From NCBI GenBank assembly GCA_016840425.1, contig JAEOSI010000089.1, positions 1 through 8,242 on the forward strand: DNA of 8,242 nucleotides. Reading direction: 5' to 3'. This document shows positions 1 to 8,242 of the stretch, one piece after another (position 1 is the stretch's first letter; each line of letters begins with the position of its first letter). A model generated the notes under the pieces. The model did no database searches, was not told the DNA's origin, and saw nothing but the letters and a program-made list of their open reading frames with translations. The position numbers were made by a program, and so were the translations under genes. This stretch comes from Candidatus Wukongarchaeum yapensis. GTDB taxonomy: Archaea; Asgardarchaeota; Wukongarchaeia; Wukongarchaeales; Wukongarchaeaceae.

Positions 1-1
1 A

Positions 2-265
2 ATCTTGGAAAAAATTCTTTATAACGTGAAAATAACTTATAACAAAGCAAAAATTATTCATTCAGACCTTTCCGAACATAACGTGGTAATTACACCAGAA
101 GAAGACATTTTAATAATTGATTGGCCACAGTTTGTCGTTATCACCCATCCAAATTCCGAATTTTTATTAAGGAGGGATTTAGAAAACATCATAAACTTCT
201 TTCACAGAAAATTTCACATAGAAAAACTTGATGTTCAAACGGTATTAGAATATATATGGGAGTAA
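2..265 (+). CDS. rio2: RIO2-type atypical Ser/Thr kinase, C-terminal part (5'-truncated by window edge)
   Basis: Catalytic loop IIHSDLSEHNV and metal-binding loop IIDWPQ (the DWPQ form is typical of RIO2), followed by HPNSEFLLRRDLENI; TAA at 263-265; frame open to the left edge. Confidence 0.9.
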   Translation: MLEKILYNVKITYNKAKIIHSDLSEHNVVITPEEDILIIDWPQFVVITHPNSEFLLRRDLENIINFFHRKFHIEKLDVQTVLEYIWE

Positions 266-549
266 ATTTTCCCTTATAGAGGTCGAGGTAGTTTTTTTCT
301 TGCTTTGATGTTCTTTCTTCTTTTCCGCTGTGTTTTTTCGTTTTTCTGCGTGGAAACCTGTTTTTTCATCATTTTAGTTTCTTTTTAAAGGTTGTTTTTG
401 TTCTTCATTGTTTTTTCTTTTTTTCGTGAACTTAGAATTTAGAATTTCACTTTCGCTTTTTTTAGTTTTTCTTTTTTATTCGTTTTTAAGCCTAATATAT
501 TCCCTTTTACCCCCCTCTCCTACATAAATAAAAAGGGAGAGACGGAAGT

Positions 550-816
550 AGAGGATATAACCGAACCGTCGTCGGGGTTCAGATCCTACCTCGTTGACCT
601 AACACGTTCGATCCTCGAAAACACTGAAGAACTACGTGAGAATCGTAGCACCAGCCGCAAACAGGTACTATGCGGTGTCGTAGATCTTATAAAGAATGAA
701 GGTCTTTTTACCTTCGAAGGTCAACGATCCAAAGAAAAAACCCTCAAAGGATCAAAGCCTTTAAAAGAGCTCATAAAGGCTTCTGAGGGCGGTTTTCCAG
801 TACCGAGGTAGTACCT
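550..816. ncRNA. Candidate structured non-coding RNA, family unassigned
   Basis: Complementary segments (+ coordinates): 591-600/718-727 (10 bp), 586-593/804-811 (8 bp), 663-670/809-816 (8 bp), 755-763/774-782 (9 bp), 741-746/784-789 (6 bp), 627-636/679-688 (9 of 10), 655-659/671-675, 698-703/710-715, 610-615/748-753, 563-567/576-580. No tRNA, RNase P, SRP or riboswitch signature recognised. Confidence 0.45.
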
Positions 817-856
817 TTTGGCGAGTTTTGAAAACGAGGATGGAGAACACCTAGGT

Positions 857-2971
857 GTGGACATACTGGGCGTGGATATATTAGCAGGCTCTTCTGTTTT
901 TTCAAGACCAAGATATGCCGCGGTTCTTCTGCAAGAAGGTGAGATAATTGACCGTTATCCCGATCTCAGTAAGCGGAGACTTTTAAGACTGATAAGAGAG
1001 TTGTCCCCCTCTTATGTGGCTTCAGACAACATTTTTGAACTGGTTGATGATAGAAGGAAGCTTAGGGCCTTATGCGCTGCTTTTCCGCTCAAAACGAAGC
1101 TGGTACAAGTTACTGGAAGTCCCTATCACGGGTTTAAACCCCTAAGAGAGATCAGTAAGCTTTACAACATCCCCTTCTCAGGGAAACCTAATCCGATGCA
1201 AACAGCAGAAATTGTAGCAAGGCTCGTAGATTTAGGAATAGGTTTCATAGTAGCGCCTTTCACAGATGAAACAAAAATAATCGTATCAAAGAGTCGCCAT
1301 CTAGGCCCTGGAGGTTGGTCTGAAAAACGTTATGCCCGAAAAATTCGGGGCGCAATACAAAAAATGGCAAGAGAAATAACTGAAAAACTTGAAGAAAAGT
1401 CCCTAGATTTTGATTATTATGAAAAACGTTCAGAATTCGGTCTTGATAAAGCGGTTTTTCATGTCTATGCCCCGAAAAAAGAGATTGATTCCTTTATTAA
1501 AAGAATGCGGACAAGCTTAATACAGGTCAAAGTTGAACCAGTGCCAAGTAAAACTACAACTTACCGCCCTATTAATGAAGAAATATTAACGGATTTAGAC
1601 CTTTTTCCTTGGCCTGTTGGAGGAGAAGAAGAAAGGAGGCTTTTACCCTTAATAGTGGGGATAGATGCAGGCACTACGACCGCCATTGCCATAATGGACT
1701 TTTCAGGCAATCTCCTTCACTTGTCAAGTAGTCGTGAATGTTCGAGAAGCGAGATAATAAAACTAATAATAAGGTATGGAAAACCTGCAATAATCGCGTC
1801 AGATGTTCCCCATACCCCCTCATTGTTAGCGAAGTTAGCTGCAACCTTTCAAGTAAAAGTACATAATCCTAAAGAGGATATCGCCGTCAGTGCAAAAACC
1901 GAACTAGTAAACAGTTTTCTCGAGGAAAATATCTTCATAAACGATAAACCAAGTAATGCCCATGAACGTGATGCCTTAACAGCAGCAATCCTTGTCTTTA
2001 AAAACTATAAAAACCTCTTTCAAAAAATAGATTCAAAAATAGAATTACAAAAACTTGGTATAAATCCTGAAGCTGTAAAAGTTTTAGTCATACAAGGAAT
2101 GAAAATCAGTGATGCTATAATGCGAATAGCAAACGAAAAAGCAAAGGAAAAAGAACTCTTAGAAACTATAAGATCAAAAGAAGTTCCACAAGAAAGAGAA
2201 ATCCAAAATGGAGAAAAAATAGACGAAGATACTGACCAGCGCTTAGTTAACCGGTTAAAACGGCGTTTGGACGCCTCAAGAAAACAATATGACTTCCTTG
2301 AACAGCAAAATGAAGAACTTAAACATAAATTAGAAGCAAATCAAAACCGCATATCTGAACTTGAAAAACAGTTGGAATATCTCCGATCAGAAAAAGCTAA
2401 AGATTTAACCATTAAAAGATTGCATATCCAACATCAATTTGAAGTAAAAAGGCTTGAAGAAGGCAAAAAGAATCTCTTTAAAGAGACAGAACTATTAAAA
2501 GATGAAATAAATAGGTTAAAAGAAGCAATATTATTAGCTTCAGATCCCGAATTAGTACCAATAAAAGTTATCCCTGACTTTTCCCTTGAAACAATCGAAA
2601 AAGCTATCACCGAGCTGAAAATCGCGGAAAAAGACATAGTTTTGATAAAAAGTCTTTCAGGGGCAGGTAGTTCCACAGCAAAAATCCTCGCAGAAACTGG
2701 CATAAAAACGATCATAGTCCCAAAATCATCCTCCATCCCTCAAAACGCCCTCTCAATATTAAAAGAAAAAAACACCATCTTACTTGAAGAAGAAAAATTA
2801 GAAATCCTGTTTAAAGAACCTTTTGCTTTCATGAGAAAAAACCTCTTTGAAGAGGCCGTAAAGCAAGCAGAACAAAAACTAGAAGAAGAACAAGAAGGAC
2901 TTCTTAAAGAACGTTTAGGAAAAATGGTAAGCGAATACAGGTTTCTACGCCGAAAAGAACTCACAGAATGA
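857..2971 (+). CDS. DUF460 / COG2433 family protein (two RNase H-like folds plus long coiled coil; predicted RuvC/YqgF-like nuclease)
   Basis: N-terminal ILGVDILAG strand, central IVGIDAGTTTAIA, ASDV and NAHERDALTAA motifs, heptad-rich region around aa 475-575 of the listed ORF. Frame is open from TTG 818; GTG 857 preferred because homologues typically start just before the ILGVDI motif. Confidence 0.85.
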   Translation: MDILGVDILAGSSVFSRPRYAAVLLQEGEIIDRYPDLSKRRLLRLIRELSPSYVASDNIFELVDDRRKLRALCAAFPLKTKLVQVTGSPYHGFKPLREISKLYNIPFSGKPNPMQTAEIVARLVDLGIGFIVAPFTDETKIIVSKSRHLGPGGWSEKRYARKIRGAIQKMAREITEKLEEKSLDFDYYEKRSEFGLDKAVFHVYAPKKEIDSFIKRMRTSLIQVKVEPVPSKTTTYRPINEEILTDLDLFPWPVGGEEERRLLPLIVGIDAGTTTAIAIMDFSGNLLHLSSSRECSRSEIIKLIIRYGKPAIIASDVPHTPSLLAKLAATFQVKVHNPKEDIAVSAKTELVNSFLEENIFINDKPSNAHERDALTAAILVFKNYKNLFQKIDSKIELQKLGINPEAVKVLVIQGMKISDAIMRIANEKAKEKELLETIRSKEVPQEREIQNGEKIDEDTDQRLVNRLKRRLDASRKQYDFLEQQNEELKHKLEANQNRISELEKQLEYLRSEKAKDLTIKRLHIQHQFEVKRLEEGKKNLFKETELLKDEINRLKEAILLASDPELVPIKVIPDFSLETIEKAITELKIAEKDIVLIKSLSGAGSSTAKILAETGIKTIIVPKSSSIPQNALSILKEKNTILLEEEKLEILFKEPFAFMRKNLFEEAVKQAEQKLEEEQEGLLKERLGKMVSEYRFLRRKELTE

Positions 2972-2982
2972 TCTCAATCCCT

Positions 2983-2987
2983 TTTAA
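2983..2987 (+). other. Left cleavage site / transposon-adjacent motif TTTAA of mini-element copy 1
   Basis: Identity between the two repeat copies begins at TTTTAA (2982 / 5983); TTAA is the cleavage site predicted from the AAGT guide tetranucleotide at the foot of the left hairpin. Confidence 0.7.
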
Positions 2988-3050
2988 CTTCTTCGGCGAG
3001 AAGTCCCCTCGCGAAAGCTGGGGGATGAAAGCCGAACAATAATAATAAAC

Positions 3051-3058
3051 TATTTATA
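3051..3058 (+). promoter_or_regulatory. Archaeal TATA-like box inside mini-element copy 1
   Basis: TATTTATA after an A-rich tract, about 26-30 nt upstream of the first scaffold hairpin (3087); conserved in copy 2. Confidence 0.5.
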
Positions 3059-3083
3059 GTCATAAGAATAACAAGATAGAAGA

Positions 3084-3131
3084 GTAGGACAGGGACTGTC
3101 CGAATTTACGCCTGTGAAGATGGATGAATAA
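3084..3131 (+). pseudogene. tnpB: tnpB C-terminal relic (VGQGLSEFTPVKMDE*)
   Basis: Translation resembles the G-Q-G-x-x-E-x-T-P-V-E tail common at the end of IS605/IS1341 TnpB proteins; upstream in-frame TAA at 3069, no RuvC or zinc-finger coding sequence left. Confidence 0.7.
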
Positions 3132-3206
3132 TGATGATCCCGTCGTTGAAACAGGAAGCTCCCTGCAAAAGCTGGGAGTAGTTCACATTAGTAGTCCGCG
3201 TCTCCA
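3084..3206 (+). ncRNA. Predicted TnpB omega-RNA (reRNA): ~103-nt scaffold plus flank-derived guide ATTAGTAGTCCGCGTCTCCA
   Basis: Hairpin GGACAG/CTGTCC (3087-3101), stem CCTGT/ACAGG (3111-3115/3151-3155) with inner GGAT/ATCC, right-end hairpin, and TGAA(3147-3150)/TTCA(3182-3185) pairing as in the terminal pseudoknot of TnpB reRNAs. The 5' end and guide length are inferred. Confidence 0.7.
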
Positions 3207-3256
3207 CAATACCCCCTAAAAAACAACTAAAAACAAACCATCCATTATTCTTTATT

Positions 3257-3502
3257 CTAATCAATAAATGTTGAATCTATTTGTATCCAAAGCACATTAT
3301 TACCCCGAAGAAAAACCTCTCCATACCTCGAAGATGGTTCTCCGTCTATGTATTCAATCGCATCATCAAGCTCTAAATTCATGAAATTATCCATCGCTCT
3401 AAGTTGCCCTTTGATTTCGCGTCCATCCTTTAATTTAACTTTTATTATGTTACCTTGAATTTTTTCCAAAACTTTTATTGGTTGTTTTTGAGATGAGGAC
3501 AG
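3257..3502 (-). CDS. Sm-like archaeal protein (SmAP/Lsm), 81 aa, probable CTG start
   Basis: Sm1 motif IKVKLKDGREIKGQLRAMDNFMNLELDDAIE and Sm2 motif YGEVFLRGNNVLWI. Frame extends upstream of the listed TTG (3469) through the conserved-type QPIKVL helix to CTG at 3502-3500, 7 nt after GGAGGTG. Stop is TAG. Confidence 0.93.
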   Translation of the reverse strand: MSSSQKQPIKVLEKIQGNIIKVKLKDGREIKGQLRAMDNFMNLELDDAIEYIDGEPSSRYGEVFLRGNNVLWIQIDSTFID

Positions 3503-3509
3503 CCTTTTA

Positions 3510-3516
3510 CACCTCC
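3510..3516 (-). promoter_or_regulatory. Shine-Dalgarno GGAGGTG of the Sm-like gene
   Basis: + strand CACCTCC at 3510-3516 reads GGAGGTG on the minus strand, 7 nt upstream of CTG. Confidence 0.75.
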
Positions 3517-4017
3517 ATTATAAAACAAAAGATTTGTAGAGGACAATCTTTTTAAGCATTATGCAAACCACATGCTCCTTCTTTAACCAACATCTATTTT
3601 TTATTAGCCTTTCTAAGCAGTCTTCAAAGATCTTTAAACAGACTAAAAGTAAACAAAGACTACGAAAAAATTTTTAGAATATAATACACAAAGAAATAAT
3701 TTAATAATATATTTATTTTCTGAGCTTCATCTTCTTTTTCAATTATTCTATTTAAAAATATACCGTTTTTTATTAAAATTCTTTTCTTCCTAATCTATCT
3801 ATCCTTAAGTGATTAATTAAAAAATTTTAAAAATTTAAGGCAATTTCTCTGAAAAATACAATAAACTTAGCTTTTATATTGCTATTTAAGACTTAAAAAA
3901 AGTTAAAAGTTATGCCATCATATAATAACAGATGAGGGATGTCAGGATTAGTAGGCAAAAAGATCTACTCAGTAAAACAAAGAAACATGTAAAGGGGCGA
4001 AATAGGGACTGAAAACA

Positions 4018-5871
4018 ATGAAATCTGAAGAAATAACTGAAGAAAAAACAGTCAAAGTAGAAGAGGAGGAAGAAAAAGAGGAGGAAATCATCAAGAAAAA
4101 AGGATTACGCTTACTTGTTGAACATTCCGACACCGAAGATATAATACTAGGTTCAAAAAACGAACTAAAAAACTATGAGGCTAAAGACACTGCAAGCATA
4201 ATAAACCCCGCAGTAAAAGAAAATGTCTGGAAAATACGTTTTGATGTAGAATCCTCAAACACGAATATGAACCCAGGTTCCTATGCGGTTGGAGACATTT
4301 TAGCTGCAACACACTGGTCCCGAGGGTACGCGCTCAAAACTACTTCTCCCCTCTTAAACCTCAAAGAAGAGATAGACACTGACTTTTCAGACGAAGAGGA
4401 GCTAAACTTTGCAAGAAAAGACTTTATATTCAACAAAATGTGCAAAACACTATTCCGAATAACATTAGAAAATACCCATGAAAACCTCAAATTATCAAAC
4501 ATAAATCTTCAGAAAAAAATGCCCGAAATTCTTGATTTTCCACCAAGAATCCTAGAGCCCTTTAAAGGCAGTATCAACTTTGATGACTTAAACAACTCAA
4601 TAGATTGGAAAATTAAAGAACTAAACCCCGGAGAAACATCAGTTTTAAACGTTGTGGGAGTAGGAAAGATTAACAAATCAGAAAAAATAGGCGCCGGCGA
4701 CATAAACGTAGATTATGAAGTTCATGACGGCGATATATCCAACATAAAATTCTCCCTAGACTCTTTGTGTAGGATAATGTTCTATGTAGAATCAAGCGAA
4801 GCAGAAGAACCTGGAGTCTGGAACTGTATAGCCCAATTTGACGGCAACGATGAATTCGAAACCCTACTAGAACACGTAAAAATTACAAAAGAAGACCAAC
4901 TAGTTCTTGATGAATACCCAAACAAAATAGTGTCTGCCGGAGGAAGTTGGAGTAGCGGATTCCAAGTTAAAAGCGAAGAACTACCTGTTTTCACAAAATC
5001 AATAAAATATCGCATACCTTGGGATATCAAACGCTTAGTTAAAAGCCATATAAGAAAGATTGGGGACCAAATTTCCGTAGTACGCATTACATGTCAAAAA
5101 ACCTTTGTTCCAGAAACTGTGAGAACCTATGCAAGGACAAAAGTAACTATAACCTCCACAGTAACAAACCAAGGAACCTCTAAAATAGACCTCCTAAAAA
5201 TCAAAGAAACAATCCCACCGTATTTCACCTTGGATCCAACTTCAGTCACCGTTACAGCAAATGGTTTTGATTTAAAAGACGCTTTTAGGCTAGAAGGCGG
5301 AACCGGTGATCCTTTGGAAAATAAACCTGTAACTTTCATCCTCGAAAATCTAATCAACAGTAATATAGGGGGTTTAAAGCCAGGATTAACCCTTGCCCTA
5401 AAATACGAAGTAGAAGCAGTAAAACCCGTACCCGGTGAATCATATCATTTTCCCTTAGAAGTTGAAGCTTTTCCTTCACCCTCTACAAAAAACCCTGCCA
5501 CAGCAATAGTCTACACTCCAAAAGGAACGTCTCCAGAAGTCCAGGTCATATACACAAAAAGAAGTATAGGTGTAGGAAAGTCCATAACACATATAGCCGG
5601 AGGAGCTTTCGAAGTAATGCTCTTAATTAAAAACCCCGGCGCAGTAACCCTCGAAGAAATCTTAGTAGAAGACGCCATACCCTACGGCTTTGATTTTGAA
5701 AATTACGAACCAAAAAGCCTTGTTTGCGAATCAAAGGAAGAGGGAAAAGAAAAAACATTCACTTGGAAAATACCAAAAATAGATCCTGGAGCAAAAATCA
5801 TCATAACTTACAATGTAAAAGGAGCGGGAGAACTCCCAAACAAAGAACCAAAAGCAACAGTACTAGGCTAA
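4018..5871 (+). CDS. Hypothetical 617-aa protein with repeated DUF11-like Ig/beta-sandwich modules, acidic N-terminus
   Basis: Long ORF with ATG start. Three segments share the pattern (V/I)xxxxxN...(I/L)xxxxxxxxxP..F...(W/L)xIxx(L/I)xPGxxxx(L/I)x(Y/V)xV at aa ~145-216, ~374-470 and ~531-602. No signal peptide or transmembrane stretch visible. Confidence 0.8.
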   Translation: MKSEEITEEKTVKVEEEEEKEEEIIKKKGLRLLVEHSDTEDIILGSKNELKNYEAKDTASIINPAVKENVWKIRFDVESSNTNMNPGSYAVGDILAATHWSRGYALKTTSPLLNLKEEIDTDFSDEEELNFARKDFIFNKMCKTLFRITLENTHENLKLSNINLQKKMPEILDFPPRILEPFKGSINFDDLNNSIDWKIKELNPGETSVLNVVGVGKINKSEKIGAGDINVDYEVHDGDISNIKFSLDSLCRIMFYVESSEAEEPGVWNCIAQFDGNDEFETLLEHVKITKEDQLVLDEYPNKIVSAGGSWSSGFQVKSEELPVFTKSIKYRIPWDIKRLVKSHIRKIGDQISVVRITCQKTFVPETVRTYARTKVTITSTVTNQGTSKIDLLKIKETIPPYFTLDPTSVTVTANGFDLKDAFRLEGGTGDPLENKPVTFILENLINSNIGGLKPGLTLALKYEVEAVKPVPGESYHFPLEVEAFPSPSTKNPATAIVYTPKGTSPEVQVIYTKRSIGVGKSITHIAGGAFEVMLLIKNPGAVTLEEILVEDAIPYGFDFENYEPKSLVCESKEEGKEKTFTWKIPKIDPGAKIIITYNVKGAGELPNKEPKATVLG

Positions 5872-5983
5872 AACTAAAAATACCAAAAATAAGACATCCC
5901 TCAACCCCTAACTATCCTTTTCGTAAAACAAGAATATTAGGCGGCTTTTCTCCTTCTTTTTCCCTTAAATTTTTGAAAATCTT

Positions 5984-5988
5984 TTTAA
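5984..5988 (+). other. Left cleavage site / transposon-adjacent motif TTTAA of mini-element copy 2
   Basis: Same TTTAA immediately before CTTCTTCGGCGAG as in copy 1; sequence further upstream is unrelated. Confidence 0.7.
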
Positions 5989-6190
5989 CTTCTTCGGCGA
6001 GAAGTCCCCTTGTGAAAACTGGGGGATGAAAGCCGAACAATAATAATAATCAACTATTTATAATCATAAGAATAACAATATAGAAGATTAGGACAGGGAC
6101 TGTCCGAATTTACGCCTGCGGAGATGGATGAATAATGATGATCCCGTCGTTGAAACAGGAAGCTCCCTGCAAAAGCTGGAAGTAGTTCAC
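5989..6190 (+). mobile_element. Non-autonomous IS200/IS605-family mini-element (PATE/MITE-like), copy 2, 202 bp
   Basis: Aligns to 2988-3186 with 9 substitutions and a 3-nt insertion (6050-6052); identity stops sharply after GTAGTTCAC (6190). Confidence 0.9.
6055..6062 (+). promoter_or_regulatory. Archaeal TATA-like box inside mini-element copy 2
   Basis: TATTTATA(A), same position relative to the scaffold as in copy 1. Confidence 0.5.
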
Positions 6191-6210
6191 AAACCATAAC
6201 TTTTCTAAAA
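6088..6210 (+). ncRNA. Predicted TnpB omega-RNA, copy 2: scaffold plus flank-derived guide AAACCATAACTTTTCTAAAA
   Basis: Same helices as copy 1 (GGACAG/CTGTCC 6091-6105, CCTG/CAGG, TGAA/TTCA); overlaps relic frame LGQGLSEFTPAEMDE* (6088-6135). Confidence 0.65.
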
Positions 6211-6345
6211 ATAGCATATTACTCTGCCTTTTGTTCTGTTAAAAGACTCTTTTTTTAATCTAAAAGTTAAGTAAAAGAACCATATTATGGTTCATCAAGA
6301 TTTCATACCGTTTTGTTTTTAAAGGTCTTTTACTCTTTTAGAGTA

Positions 6346-6492
6346 AAAAAATGCGGTAGAGGTGTAAGTTCAGAATTTGTTTTTTGTTCTTTTTGCGCAA
6401 GTCCTTCTCACGTTTGCCGGTAGTGTAGAAAAGTTTTGGATCTGGATTGGATAGAATGTCCTTATTGCGGTTCTTTGGTTAAGAATTATTGA
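6346..6492 (+). pseudogene. Degenerate double zinc ribbon (DZR-like) ORF with in-frame TAG
   Basis: Reads KKCGRGVSSEFVFCSFCASPSHVCR*CRKVLDLDWIECPYCGSLVKNY*; TAG at 6421-6423 lies inside a CxxC; first knuckle lacks its first Cys; no ATG start. Confidence 0.65.
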
Positions 6493-6569
6493 TCAAAAAG
6501 TTAAAAGATCACCACTTTAATCTGATATTTATCCGAATAAAAAAATGTTTTTTTTCAGAGTGTGTTAAA

Positions 6570-7847
6570 ATGAGCCTTAATATTGAAAGTACTACAGTAA
6601 AAAAGCTTGCTGAAACAGAAGGAGTCGAAGAGGAGTTTATCAAGAAAGGCTTAAAAAACGGATACATCGTTTTGCTTCAAAACGTTGCCCGCGAAGATGT
6701 TAAAATTTGCGGGATAGGCTTAGGCTTACACACTAAAGTTAACGCTAATCTAGGAACCTCCGCGGACCTAATAGACCCAGTACTAGAAAAGGAAAAAGCT
6801 AAAGTAGCCGTGAAAAGCGGGGCAGACTCCATTATGGACCTAAGCTCCGCAGGATCCCTTGACGAAATAAGAAGAATGATCCTGAAAACGGTAAAGGTTC
6901 CCCTAGGCACGGTTCCAGTATATCAAGCAGCCCTAGAAGCTAGAGAACAAAAAGACGCCATAATCAACATGGATGAAGACGACATTTTCCGATCCATAGA
7001 AAAACATGTGAAAGATGGAGTCGACTTCATCACCGTCCATTGCGGCGTAACAAAAAACACCGTAGAAGAGATCATTAAAAGAGGACGTTTAATGGGTATT
7101 GTAAGCAGGGGAGGTGCTTTTCACGCAGCCACTATAATCCACACCGGAGAAGAAAACCCGCTCTATAAAAACTACGACTATCTCCTAGAAATCTGTAAAG
7201 AATACAACACAACTCTGAGCCTTGGAGACGGCATAAGACCCGGTTGCTTAGAAGATGCAAACGACTCGCCACAAATCGCCGAAATGCTAGTAATAAGCGA
7301 ACTCGTAGAGAGGGCCAGAAAAGCAGGGGTACAAGCAATGGTCGAAGGCCCAGGACACATACCCCTCCACGAGGTTGAACCTATAGTTAAAATGTATAAA
7401 GCTTCATGTAAAAACGCCCCTCTATACCTCCTAGGCCCCCTTGTCACAGATATAGCAGCAGGATACGATCATATAGCAGGAGGCATAGGAGGAGCAATTG
7501 CTGCCGCCGCTGGAGCCGACTTTTTATGCGTTATAACCTCCTCAGAACACTTAGGACTCCCAGGAGTCGAAGAAATAAAAGAAGGCGTGATCGCCGCAAA
7601 AATAGCAGCTCACGCTGCAGACATAGTAAAACTAGGAAAAAAAGCTTCAAAATTAGATAAAAGAATGTCCATCGCAAGAGCAAACCTAAACTGGAAAACC
7701 CAACTCAAGCTCGCACCAGACCCAGAAAAAGCACGAAAAATCCACGAAAACATAAAAGCAGAACACGACCCAGAAACATGTTCAATGTGTGGAGACGTTT
7801 GTGCCATTAAACTACTTTCAGAAAAATTAACAAGAAAAAAAGAATAA
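6570..7847 (+). CDS. thiC: ThiC-family radical SAM enzyme (phosphomethylpyrimidine synthase; BzaB/BzaF-type paralogue not excluded), 425 aa
   Basis: KVNANLGTS, GADSIMDLS, GTVPVYQA, VDFITVHCG, SRGG, LSLGDGIRPG, EGPGH, GYDHI, EHLGLP and C-terminal CSMCGDVC cluster motif. ATG 6570 preferred over the listed TTG 6489, whose extension is low-complexity. Confidence 0.9.
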   Translation: MSLNIESTTVKKLAETEGVEEEFIKKGLKNGYIVLLQNVAREDVKICGIGLGLHTKVNANLGTSADLIDPVLEKEKAKVAVKSGADSIMDLSSAGSLDEIRRMILKTVKVPLGTVPVYQAALEAREQKDAIINMDEDDIFRSIEKHVKDGVDFITVHCGVTKNTVEEIIKRGRLMGIVSRGGAFHAATIIHTGEENPLYKNYDYLLEICKEYNTTLSLGDGIRPGCLEDANDSPQIAEMLVISELVERARKAGVQAMVEGPGHIPLHEVEPIVKMYKASCKNAPLYLLGPLVTDIAAGYDHIAGGIGGAIAAAAGADFLCVITSSEHLGLPGVEEIKEGVIAAKIAAHAADIVKLGKKASKLDKRMSIARANLNWKTQLKLAPDPEKARKIHENIKAEHDPETCSMCGDVCAIKLLSEKLTRKKE

Positions 7848-7870
7848 AAAACCCTAACTTTATTAAGCGA

Positions 7871-8242
7871 TTAACTTTTTTTCACGCAAATCGCGCATAC
7901 ATCCTCAACACTCGCAGGGAAAACATCTAAAACAGAAAGCCCTGCTTCCAAACAAACTTTCTTAAGTTCTTCACCATCCAACCTTTTTTTCAAAACAGTA
8001 ACCACGACTTTTCCATCCTTTTTAACAACCCTACTCATCTCCCTTAAAGAAGCAAGAGGATCGGGCAAATTTTGCAAAACTGTAAAAGAAAAAACACCAT
8101 CAAAAACAGAATCACGTAAAGGCAACCAATCAGAATCTCCCAAAACAAGAAAACAAGGAAATTTTTTCTCCCTAATAACCTCCAACATCCCTAAAGAAAA
8201 ATCAAGACAAACAACTTCACAATCAGGAAGAAAAGGCAAAAG
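7871..8242 (-). CDS. Class I SAM-dependent methyltransferase (Methyltransf_11-like), C-terminal part, 5'-truncated by window edge
   Basis: VVCLDFSLGML (motif II), VLGDSDWLPLRDSVFDGVFSFTVLQNL and LREMSRVVKKDG motifs; TAA at 7873-7871. Confidence 0.85.
   Translation of the reverse strand, partial: LLPFLPDCEVVCLDFSLGMLEVIREKKFPCFLVLGDSDWLPLRDSVFDGVFSFTVLQNLPDPLASLREMSRVVKKDGKVVVTVLKKRLDGEELKKVCLEAGLSVLDVFPASVEDVCAICVKKS

Follow-up and report, generated by a model that had tools for sequence, protein, structure and literature searches.

Two protein-free repeats in a Candidatus Wukongarchaeum contig probably derive from an IS200/IS605 tnpB element and retain a predicted omega-RNA module

Introduction

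What are two short repeats that lie 3 kb apart in the genome of an Asgard archaeon and encode no protein, and what have they kept of the element from which they came? We analyzed a window of 8,242 nt (the whole of contig JAEOSI010000089.1, positions 1 to 8,242 of the forward strand, assembly GCA_016840425.1, Candidatus Wukongarchaeum yapensis; all coordinates refer to this window unless a contig is named). It carries two copies of a repeat of ~200 nt with the ends of an IS200/IS605 element. A first-pass annotation, made from the sequence alone, had proposed that a deletion removed tnpA and tnpB from these copies and left the parts needed for mobilization by TnpA and for guiding of TnpB. The results described below make it likely that both repeats are non-autonomous, protein-free palindrome-associated transposable elements (PATEs) of an ISDra2-like IS200/IS605 tnpB element, with an omega-RNA module usable in trans.

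Results

Two sharply bounded copies of one repeat

The two copies and their parts are as follows.

2988-3186, + strand: copy 1, 199 nt
5989-6190, + strand: copy 2, 202 nt
2983-2987, + strand: TTTAA target of copy 1 and presumed transposon-associated motif (TAM) of TnpB, outside the element, no duplication
5984-5988, + strand: TTTAA target and presumed TAM of copy 2
2988-3037, + strand: left end of copy 1, with a 17-nt tip, an imperfect hairpin and then GATGAAAGCCGAAC (DNA fold, and left-end alignments from its own and other Asgard genomes)
3051-3058, + strand: TATA-box-like motif TATTTATA of copy 1, from the parental left-end promoter
3081-3186, + strand: omega-RNA scaffold of copy 1 (covariance model R1, see below)
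3087-3092/3096-3101, + strand: stem 1 of copy 1
3111-3114 (CCTG)/3152-3155 (CAGG), + strand: stem 2 of copy 1
~3120-3144, + strand: shortened variable stem of copy 1
3159-3178, + strand: right-end hairpin of copy 1, followed by the terminal TAGTTCAC at 3179-3186
3187-3206, + strand: 3' flank of copy 1, presumed guide, ATTAGTAGTCCGCGTC...
5989-6084, + strand: left end and AT-rich spacer of copy 2, with a hairpin at 6006-6024 and TATTTATA at 6055-6062
6085-6190, + strand: omega-RNA scaffold and right end of copy 2 (model R1)
6191-6210, + strand: 3' flank of copy 2, presumed guide, AAACCATAACTTTTCT...

When aligned, the two copies differed by 9 substitutions and one 3-nt indel, the additional 3 nt being located in the left part of copy 2 (5989-6084). 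Both end at the right border GTAGTTCAC, and the limits of their identity coincide exactly with the TTTAA and GTAGTTCAC borders, beyond which the flanks of the two copies are unrelated. DNA folding placed an imperfect hairpin near each end. In copy 1, the left hairpin at 3005-3023 (CCCC-T-(C)GC-GAAA-GC-T-GGGG, with a T.T mismatch) follows the 17-nt tip, which closes with AAGT (3001-3004), the predicted left "guide" tetranucleotide of TnpA; the right hairpin at 3159-3178 has the form CTCCC-T-GC-AAAA-GC-T-GGGAG. The hairpins of the two ends are similar to one another and show compensatory changes among copies, and there are no terminal inverted repeats. Neither tnpA nor tnpB was found within either copy, where only chance open reading frames (ORFs) overlap the edges; 199 or 202 nt is too short for a transposase. 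A relic frame, translated as VGQGLSEFTPVKM in copy 1 and as LGQGLSEFTPAEM in copy 2, corresponds to the C-terminus of the parental TnpB (LGQGLSEFTPVEIEPLPREI...). The alignment, the fold and the ORF check thus agree with the first-pass description of the two same-strand copies in their differences, borders, unrelated flanks, subterminal hairpins, relic peptide and lack of both genes.

The repeat belongs to a large family with tnpB-bearing parents

The genome assembly that contains the window (G000; 2.16 Mb, 277 contigs, 92% complete, 38% GC; the window is its contig C77) yielded 45-51 matches to the element. Nine copies form a 199-nt subfamily with 84-97% identity (two on C77 and the others on C88, C168, C177, C160, C147, C201 and C253). 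Further protein-free copies, which we call minis together with the former, include three with a long third stem (C268, C175 and C5) and two 280-bp variants (C154 and C144), while larger derivatives were found on C143 (880 bp, tnpB internally deleted) and C232 (930 bp); independent derivatives of 280, 325, 880 and 930 bp are present. Approximately 25 left ends in the genome are preceded by TTTAA, TTTTA being rare, and every right end closes with (G/A)GTAGTTCAC, so that the other copies keep the borders seen in the window. Many of the right ends lie directly behind tnpB genes.

The genome contains 31 matches to the TnpB Zn-ribbon, and the parent with matching ends that the earlier reading called for is represented by tnpB-bearing elements on C137 (full length), C59, C143, C205 and other contigs. 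That on C137 is a complete tnpB-only element of ~1.3 kb, bounded by TTTAA and GTAGTTCAC, with a left-end hairpin, a 397-aa ORF and a right end; a TTTATAAAA box lies 36 nt upstream of its ATG. C59 holds a second intact tnpB copy, also of 397 aa, and the C137 and C59 proteins both contain PF12323, PF01385 and PF07282. The C137 protein matched the TnpB of ISDra2 (8BF8, 8EXA, 8H1J) with an E value of 6e-48 over residues 6-361, and its GIDMG, AVEKLN and GRDYN segments aligned to the top match, 9yyg, a designed relative of ISDra2 TnpB. We take the GxDxG, AVExLN and RD motifs of C137 to be the RuvC triad. The TnpB proteins of this group (family A) end in ...FVVLKRGLEEVLGQGLSEFTPVEIEPLPREISASSVVESGSSLQ or ...LGQGLSEFTPVEIEPLPREISASSVVESGSSLQ, their stop codon lying in the loop of the right-end hairpin and being followed by TAGTTCAC. 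Their final ~36 codons are outside of the conserved protein and overlap the RNA scaffold, and the right part of the minis can be aligned to the terminal ~110-130 nt of family-A tnpB elements, the GQGLSEFTP codons among them. Relatives of family-A TnpB with 45-60% identity occur in many metagenome-assembled genomes (MAGs) of DPANN, methanogens and other archaea.

Three side observations concern this family. Two 46-nt elements (C104, ~5105-5155, - strand; C160, 797-847, + strand) have the form TTTAA, CTTCTTCGGC(T/G)A(G/T)AAG, a single hairpin and TAGTTCAC; their one hairpin is a fusion of the left and right ones, and no scaffold is left. An element of ~270-300 bp, "Z", with terminal inverted repeats CAGTCTACGCGCATGTTA ... 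TTAACACGCGGGTAGAC, is located in the GAAA loop of the left hairpin of three IS605-type/PATE copies (C253, 10003-10271; C175, ~3570-3875; C121, left end at ~oriented 5915), with GAAA flanking it on both sides. On C160, the 20 nt 5' of the 46-nt element (777-847, +) and of a mini (1855-2080, -) are the same, ACTTACTAACATACTTTTAA, in inverted orientation; copies may have recombined or undergone inversion here, or the assembly may be at fault.

The retained right part is a full-length, covarying scaffold

Covariance model R1 was built from 31 right ends of G000 and of a same-genus genome, G001. Both copies in the window matched it over its full length (positions 1-120/120): copy 1 (3081-3186) with 105.4 bits and an E value of 3e-24, and copy 2 (6085-6190) with 102.8 bits and an E value of 1.4e-23. 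R1 also matched the right ends of ~50 tnpB loci in other archaea. Compensatory changes were seen in 29 of the 30 pairs among 56 right ends from many archaea. In this alignment, which was fitted to the model and hence somewhat inflates pairing, 93.9% of cells were paired as compared to 30-45% with slid partners, and there were 342 double-change cells versus 100 +/- 8.5 in shuffles. The right ends of the own genome gave a similar picture (89% paired, versus 28-43% with slid partners). Invariant neighbours anchor stems 1 and 2, whose changes can be seen in the raw sequences; in stem 2, CCTG/CAGG is replaced by CTTG/CAAG, CCTA/TAGG or CATC/GATG. Because nucleotide conservation across the clade begins at stem 1, the minis contain the whole conserved scaffold, as the first-pass annotation had claimed.

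The third stem varies. It is short (GGAT...ATCC) in the main mini subfamily, is a ~45-nt stem-loop in the parental elements, and is replaced by pairing with an upstream segment in the 280-bp variants. Nucleotide diversity among minis, based on only 6-8 copies, was 0.02-0.06 in the scaffold core versus 0.06-0.10 in the spacer. In the diverged minis on C147 and C201 (84-86% overall identity), the left ends are much changed and the scaffold core is near-constant. RNAalifold added a long-range helix between GAAUU (3102-3106) and AGUUC (3180-3184), which is invariant and so is neither supported nor rejected by covariation. Scanned against Rfam with a threshold of E<=1, the whole window gave just a chance match to a long non-coding RNA family and none to an omega-RNA family.

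A predicted promoter and two presumed guides

In G040, another Asgard genome, an element with the same type of left end has a TATA box 29 nt before the start of tnpA; like the box of C137, it occupies a position in the left end equivalent to that in the minis. The TATA box of the minis (3051-3058 in copy 1 and 6055-6062 in copy 2) predicts transcription starts at ~3076-3082 and ~6080-6086, which would be 5-10 nt before stem 1. As for TTTATAGTC in the minis, an origin from the tnpB codons TTTGTAGTC (FVV) was considered; a by-eye comparison with the left end of the G040 element favours an origin from the promoter and leader of the left end. A MAFFT alignment sets the bases of TTTATAGTC differently, and the position of the deletion junction, ~3070-3080, is uncertain.

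Judging from the biology of ISDra2 and IS605, the 3' flanks of both copies are presumed to act as guides. The flank of copy 1 is unique in the genome and equals the sequence behind TTTAA in the empty allele described below. The flank of copy 2 has a run of T4 at +12 to +15, where archaeal transcription could end. For 14 of 14 mini guides no second target was found, and TTTAA followed by 12 matching nt does not occur elsewhere in the genome.

Copy 1 is a precise and polymorphic insertion

The same-genus genome G001 is syntenic over the entire window at ~90% identity. At the copy-1 site it reads ...CAATTCC TTTAA ATTGGTAAGTCACGTCTCC..., the empty site thus starting TTTAA ATTGGTAAG, and the window reads ...CAATCCCT TTTAA (199 nt) ATTAGTAGTCCGCGTCTCC.... 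Copy 1 has inserted precisely 3' of TTTAA and has duplicated no target sequence. Public metagenome contigs from four runs were aligned to positions 2300-3900 of the window, which cover the copy-1 site only. In three runs from three studies (sediment, mangrove and marine sediment), contigs joined 2987 directly to 3187, skipping 199 nt (CT..AC), and one 3303-nt contig with the empty allele had just 6 differences from the flanks. The fourth run contained the filled allele. The empty allele that the first-pass annotation predicted, TTTAA followed by ATT(A/G)GTA..., therefore exists both in G001 and in natural populations. Mini-elements are polymorphic in these populations, which implies recent activity, and have been recently mobile. 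Summed contig depth over the element was ~5-30x that of the flanks in all four runs, a total over all aligned contigs and not a copy number. For copy 2, G001 provided no clean empty allele, the intergenic region being rearranged there such that ~5925-6300 is replaced by ~35 nt.

Another insertion was observed in a tnpB gene. The mini on C177 (4059-4257, - strand) lies antisense within a family-C tnpB, at TTTAA followed by TGCAATGCCTACTCTT. In paralogous tnpB copies on C61, C212, C97, C144 and C246 this TTTAA site is uninterrupted, which provides a paralogous empty site for the C177 copy. Within the first four nt of its would-be guide, however, these copies show 2-4 mismatches, which makes it doubtful that the guide is aimed at them.

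The ends fit the pairing rule of IS608, and a matching tnpA element exists in another Asgard genome

In IS608, bases 1, 2 and 4 at the foot of a hairpin pair with bases 2, 1 and 4 of the cleavage site. By this rule, the left foot AAGT predicts TTNA, and TTAA was found; the right foot GAAG (3155-3158) predicts TCNC, and TCAC was found (3183-3186). Both ends fit the rule. A sister family in the same genome has the left foot AAGA together with the TAM TTTAT, a matching double change. The distances are also similar to those of IS608 of Helicobacter pylori, which is cut ~17-19 nt 5' of the left hairpin and ~8-10 nt 3' of the right hairpin, whereas its target is TTAC rather than TTTAA.

Only one full Y1 transposase, on C70, is present in the own genome. 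It lies behind a different left-end hairpin and is 35% identical to the TnpA of G040, and we assigned it to another subfamily. The G040 element encodes TnpA (142 aa) and TnpB (427 aa) and shares the left-end type and the transposon-encoded motif (TEM) of the minis; G040 also holds tnpB-only and protein-free versions.

The autonomous G040 element with both genes (L143, G040:C7:192721-196086) has the right end ...GGGGTAGTTCAC. The 10 nt directly 3' of this right end (ATAGACTTGG) repeat the opening 10 nt of the element, which could mean that a tandem copy or a right-end/left-end junction has left a trace there.

Gene context and a second repeat

The other features of the window are the following.

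2-265: RIO kinase fragment
292-807: block of ~515 bp absent from G001
818-2971, + strand: DUF460 gene
3257-3469, - strand: LSm gene
6489-7847, + strand: thiC (ThiC)
7871-8242, - strand: methyltransferase gene

The DUF460 and LSm genes converge with their 3' ends on copy 1, and thiC starts ~300 nt downstream of copy 2. The block at 292-807 lies directly upstream of the DUF460 gene, and the syntenic locus of G001 joins 291 to 808. The block contains no ORF of >=50 aa and has no Rfam match. In the own genome, its 3' ~290 bp (515-811) are found in at least 10 places (80-86% identity), and G001 has several such places. The block resembles a second, unexplained mobile repeat.

Discussion

Since the left end and the whole scaffold are kept, we regard the repeats as PATE-type deletion derivatives with an intact omega-RNA module. 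A single internal deletion would have removed the entire coding region. In the product, the left end, with its 17-nt tip, hairpin, TATA box and a short leader, would lie directly before the final ~110 nt of the parent, which comprise the complete omega-RNA scaffold, the right-end hairpin and the cleavage site. Y1 TnpA supplied in trans would then move the minis as single strands ("peel and paste"). RNA would start from the left-end TATA box, a few bases before the scaffold, and run through TCAC into the 3' flank. A TnpB of family A, encoded at another locus (the intact copies being on C59 and C137), would bind this RNA and cut the TTTAA-flanked empty site after excision, and recombination with the sister chromosome would restore the mini-element. 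Each copy would in this way be a small guide cassette that depends on the TnpA and TnpB of other elements.

Several points weigh against this interpretation. The cognate TnpA was found neither in the own assembly, with its 92% completeness and 277 contigs, nor in G001. The need of TnpA for a DNA structure would by itself make the right-end hairpin covary. The fit of the 56-sequence alignment to its model and the small number of copies behind the diversity values reduce the force of these two results. Tolerance of the shortened third stem by TnpB is presumed, and the promoter of the minis, its start site and read-through into the flank are inferred from sequence.

The main alternative is that the minis are mobile PATEs spread by TnpA alone, and that their omega-RNA part is an inert remnant that is not transcribed and does not serve TnpB. 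With 94-97% identity, the copies are young and have had little time for decay, scaffold-less 46-nt derivatives with a single hairpin persist as well, and decay without selection is common in this genome: a stop-to-stop scan gave short frames around the Zn-ribbon for the family-A tnpB genes on C54, C143, C180, C125 and C239, and other IS605-type tnpB genes are broken too. Yet, whereas a TnpA of the IS608 type requires just the hairpin and ~10-20 nt around it, at least four independent derivatives (199, 280, 325 and 880 nt) retain the full scaffold from stem 1, the scaffold core of the C147 and C201 copies is nearly unchanged despite their altered left ends, the scaffold-bearing form has at least 9 copies versus 2 of the 46-nt form, and the deletion set the TATA box ~25-30 nt upstream of the scaffold. 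We consider an inert relic unlikely. It appears instead that the scaffold is kept for a reason, because four independent deletion derivatives retain it and because its core is near-constant in diverged copies, few as these are. We put forward tentatively, as possible but doubtful, a stronger version of this idea: the 199-nt form would be a guide-RNA cassette that is under selection and carries its own promoter, the left-end promoter being fused to a trimmed scaffold. It would exploit both TnpA and TnpB as a hyperparasite and compete with full-length elements for TnpB.

It is much less probable that the structure acts as DNA, through recognition of the single-stranded right end by TnpA or a host factor, or as a regulatory RNA adopted by the host, such as the guide of a TnpB-like repressor without nuclease activity, and not as a homing guide. 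Covariation does not separate RNA from single-stranded DNA, copy 2 lies upstream of thiC, and RNA-guided repressors derived from TnpB are known in bacteria (bioRxiv 10.1101/2023.11.30.569447). However, the structured region is at the position known for the omega RNA of ISDra2-type elements, the C137 TnpB retains three RuvC-type motifs in its alignment to the designed ISDra2-TnpB relative, and the guides are local flanks, each unique in the genome and lacking a second target. A fixed host function also fits poorly with an insertion that varies among nearly identical strains. The position of both copies on one short contig, at a distance of 3 kb and in a fragmented MAG, might suggest a local segmental duplication or an assembly artefact. 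This is already refuted by the sharp ends of identity at TTTAA and TCAC between unrelated flanks, by more than 12 further copies on other contigs, by the empty site in G001 and by filled and empty alleles in independent metagenome assemblies.

The interpretation of the repeats as PATEs with a usable omega-RNA module has close precedents, and while this part of the first-pass annotation stands, its claim to novelty does not. PATEs were described in Haloquadratum walsbyi and Natronomonas by Dyall-Smith et al. 2011 (PMC3119063). Like the minis, they are free of protein genes, have near-terminal palindromes and no terminal inverted repeats, insert at a targeting sequence of 4-5 nt without duplication, share their ends with IS1341-type (tnpB) transposons, originate by core deletion and include strain-specific insertions. 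The likeness extends to ~50-bp PATEs that consist of the termini only (~52 bp in Haloquadratum, by repeat-mediated core deletion), comparable to the 46-nt elements on C104 and C160, and to the small SMR-A repeats with terminal inverted repeats that insert in haloarchaeal PATE palindromes, comparable to element "Z" on C253, C175 and C121. That study predates the omega RNA and did not interpret the retained 3' part of tnpB (HqIRS71) as a guide scaffold, whereas the part retained here is a full covarying scaffold behind a TATA box, and the host belongs to the Hodarchaeota (Asgard) instead of the haloarchaea. Subsequently, Meers et al. 2023 (PMC10055086) stated that PATEs "often encode omega RNAs" used in trans. 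Their PATE-like IS605-family elements of Geobacillus stearothermophilus also consist of a left and a right end without genes and follow the same proposed logic, in which mobilization depends on TnpA and homing on TnpB, each supplied in trans. These elements are bacterial and have other TAM/TEM motifs, and TnpB homing was demonstrated for full elements; ours are known from sequence alone. The idea of omega-RNA-carrying PATEs used in trans is therefore already published, and current understanding is unchanged.

Two further systems place the parent. As in ISDra2 of Deinococcus radiodurans, the scaffold overlaps the 3' end of tnpB and the right end, is ~105-130 nt long, and is followed by a guide formed by the 3' flank. 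ISDra2 differs in its TAM (TTGAT versus TTTAA) and in a scaffold unrelated at the nucleotide level, and the elements of the window lack genes. The TAM 5'-TTTAA has been shown experimentally for SisTnpB1 of Sulfolobus islandicus (bioRxiv 10.1101/2023.03.06.531077), another archaeal IS200/IS605 TnpB whose TAM is the left-end target motif; it belongs, unlike the minis, to a full-length element, and its host is a thermophilic crenarchaeon.

What the present analysis adds is a Hodarchaeota (Asgard) host, filled and empty alleles in natural populations, the geometry of promoter and scaffold, and a scaffold model backed by covariation. Three items are of practical use: a natural scaffold of minimal size (~106 nt) whose third stem is naturally shortened, TTTAA as a defined presumed TAM of an ISDra2-like archaeal TnpB, and the covariance model, with which this scaffold was recovered across the DPANN, methanogen and Asgard MAGs that were searched. 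The minis are a clean natural example of the modularity of IS200/IS605 elements, in which both proteins are shed and the ends, a predicted promoter and the guide scaffold are kept. If the 199-nt form were indeed a hyperparasite, this Asgard genome would be a natural arena of RNA-guided transposon conflict, in which such cassettes can land in rival tnpB genes, as on C177.

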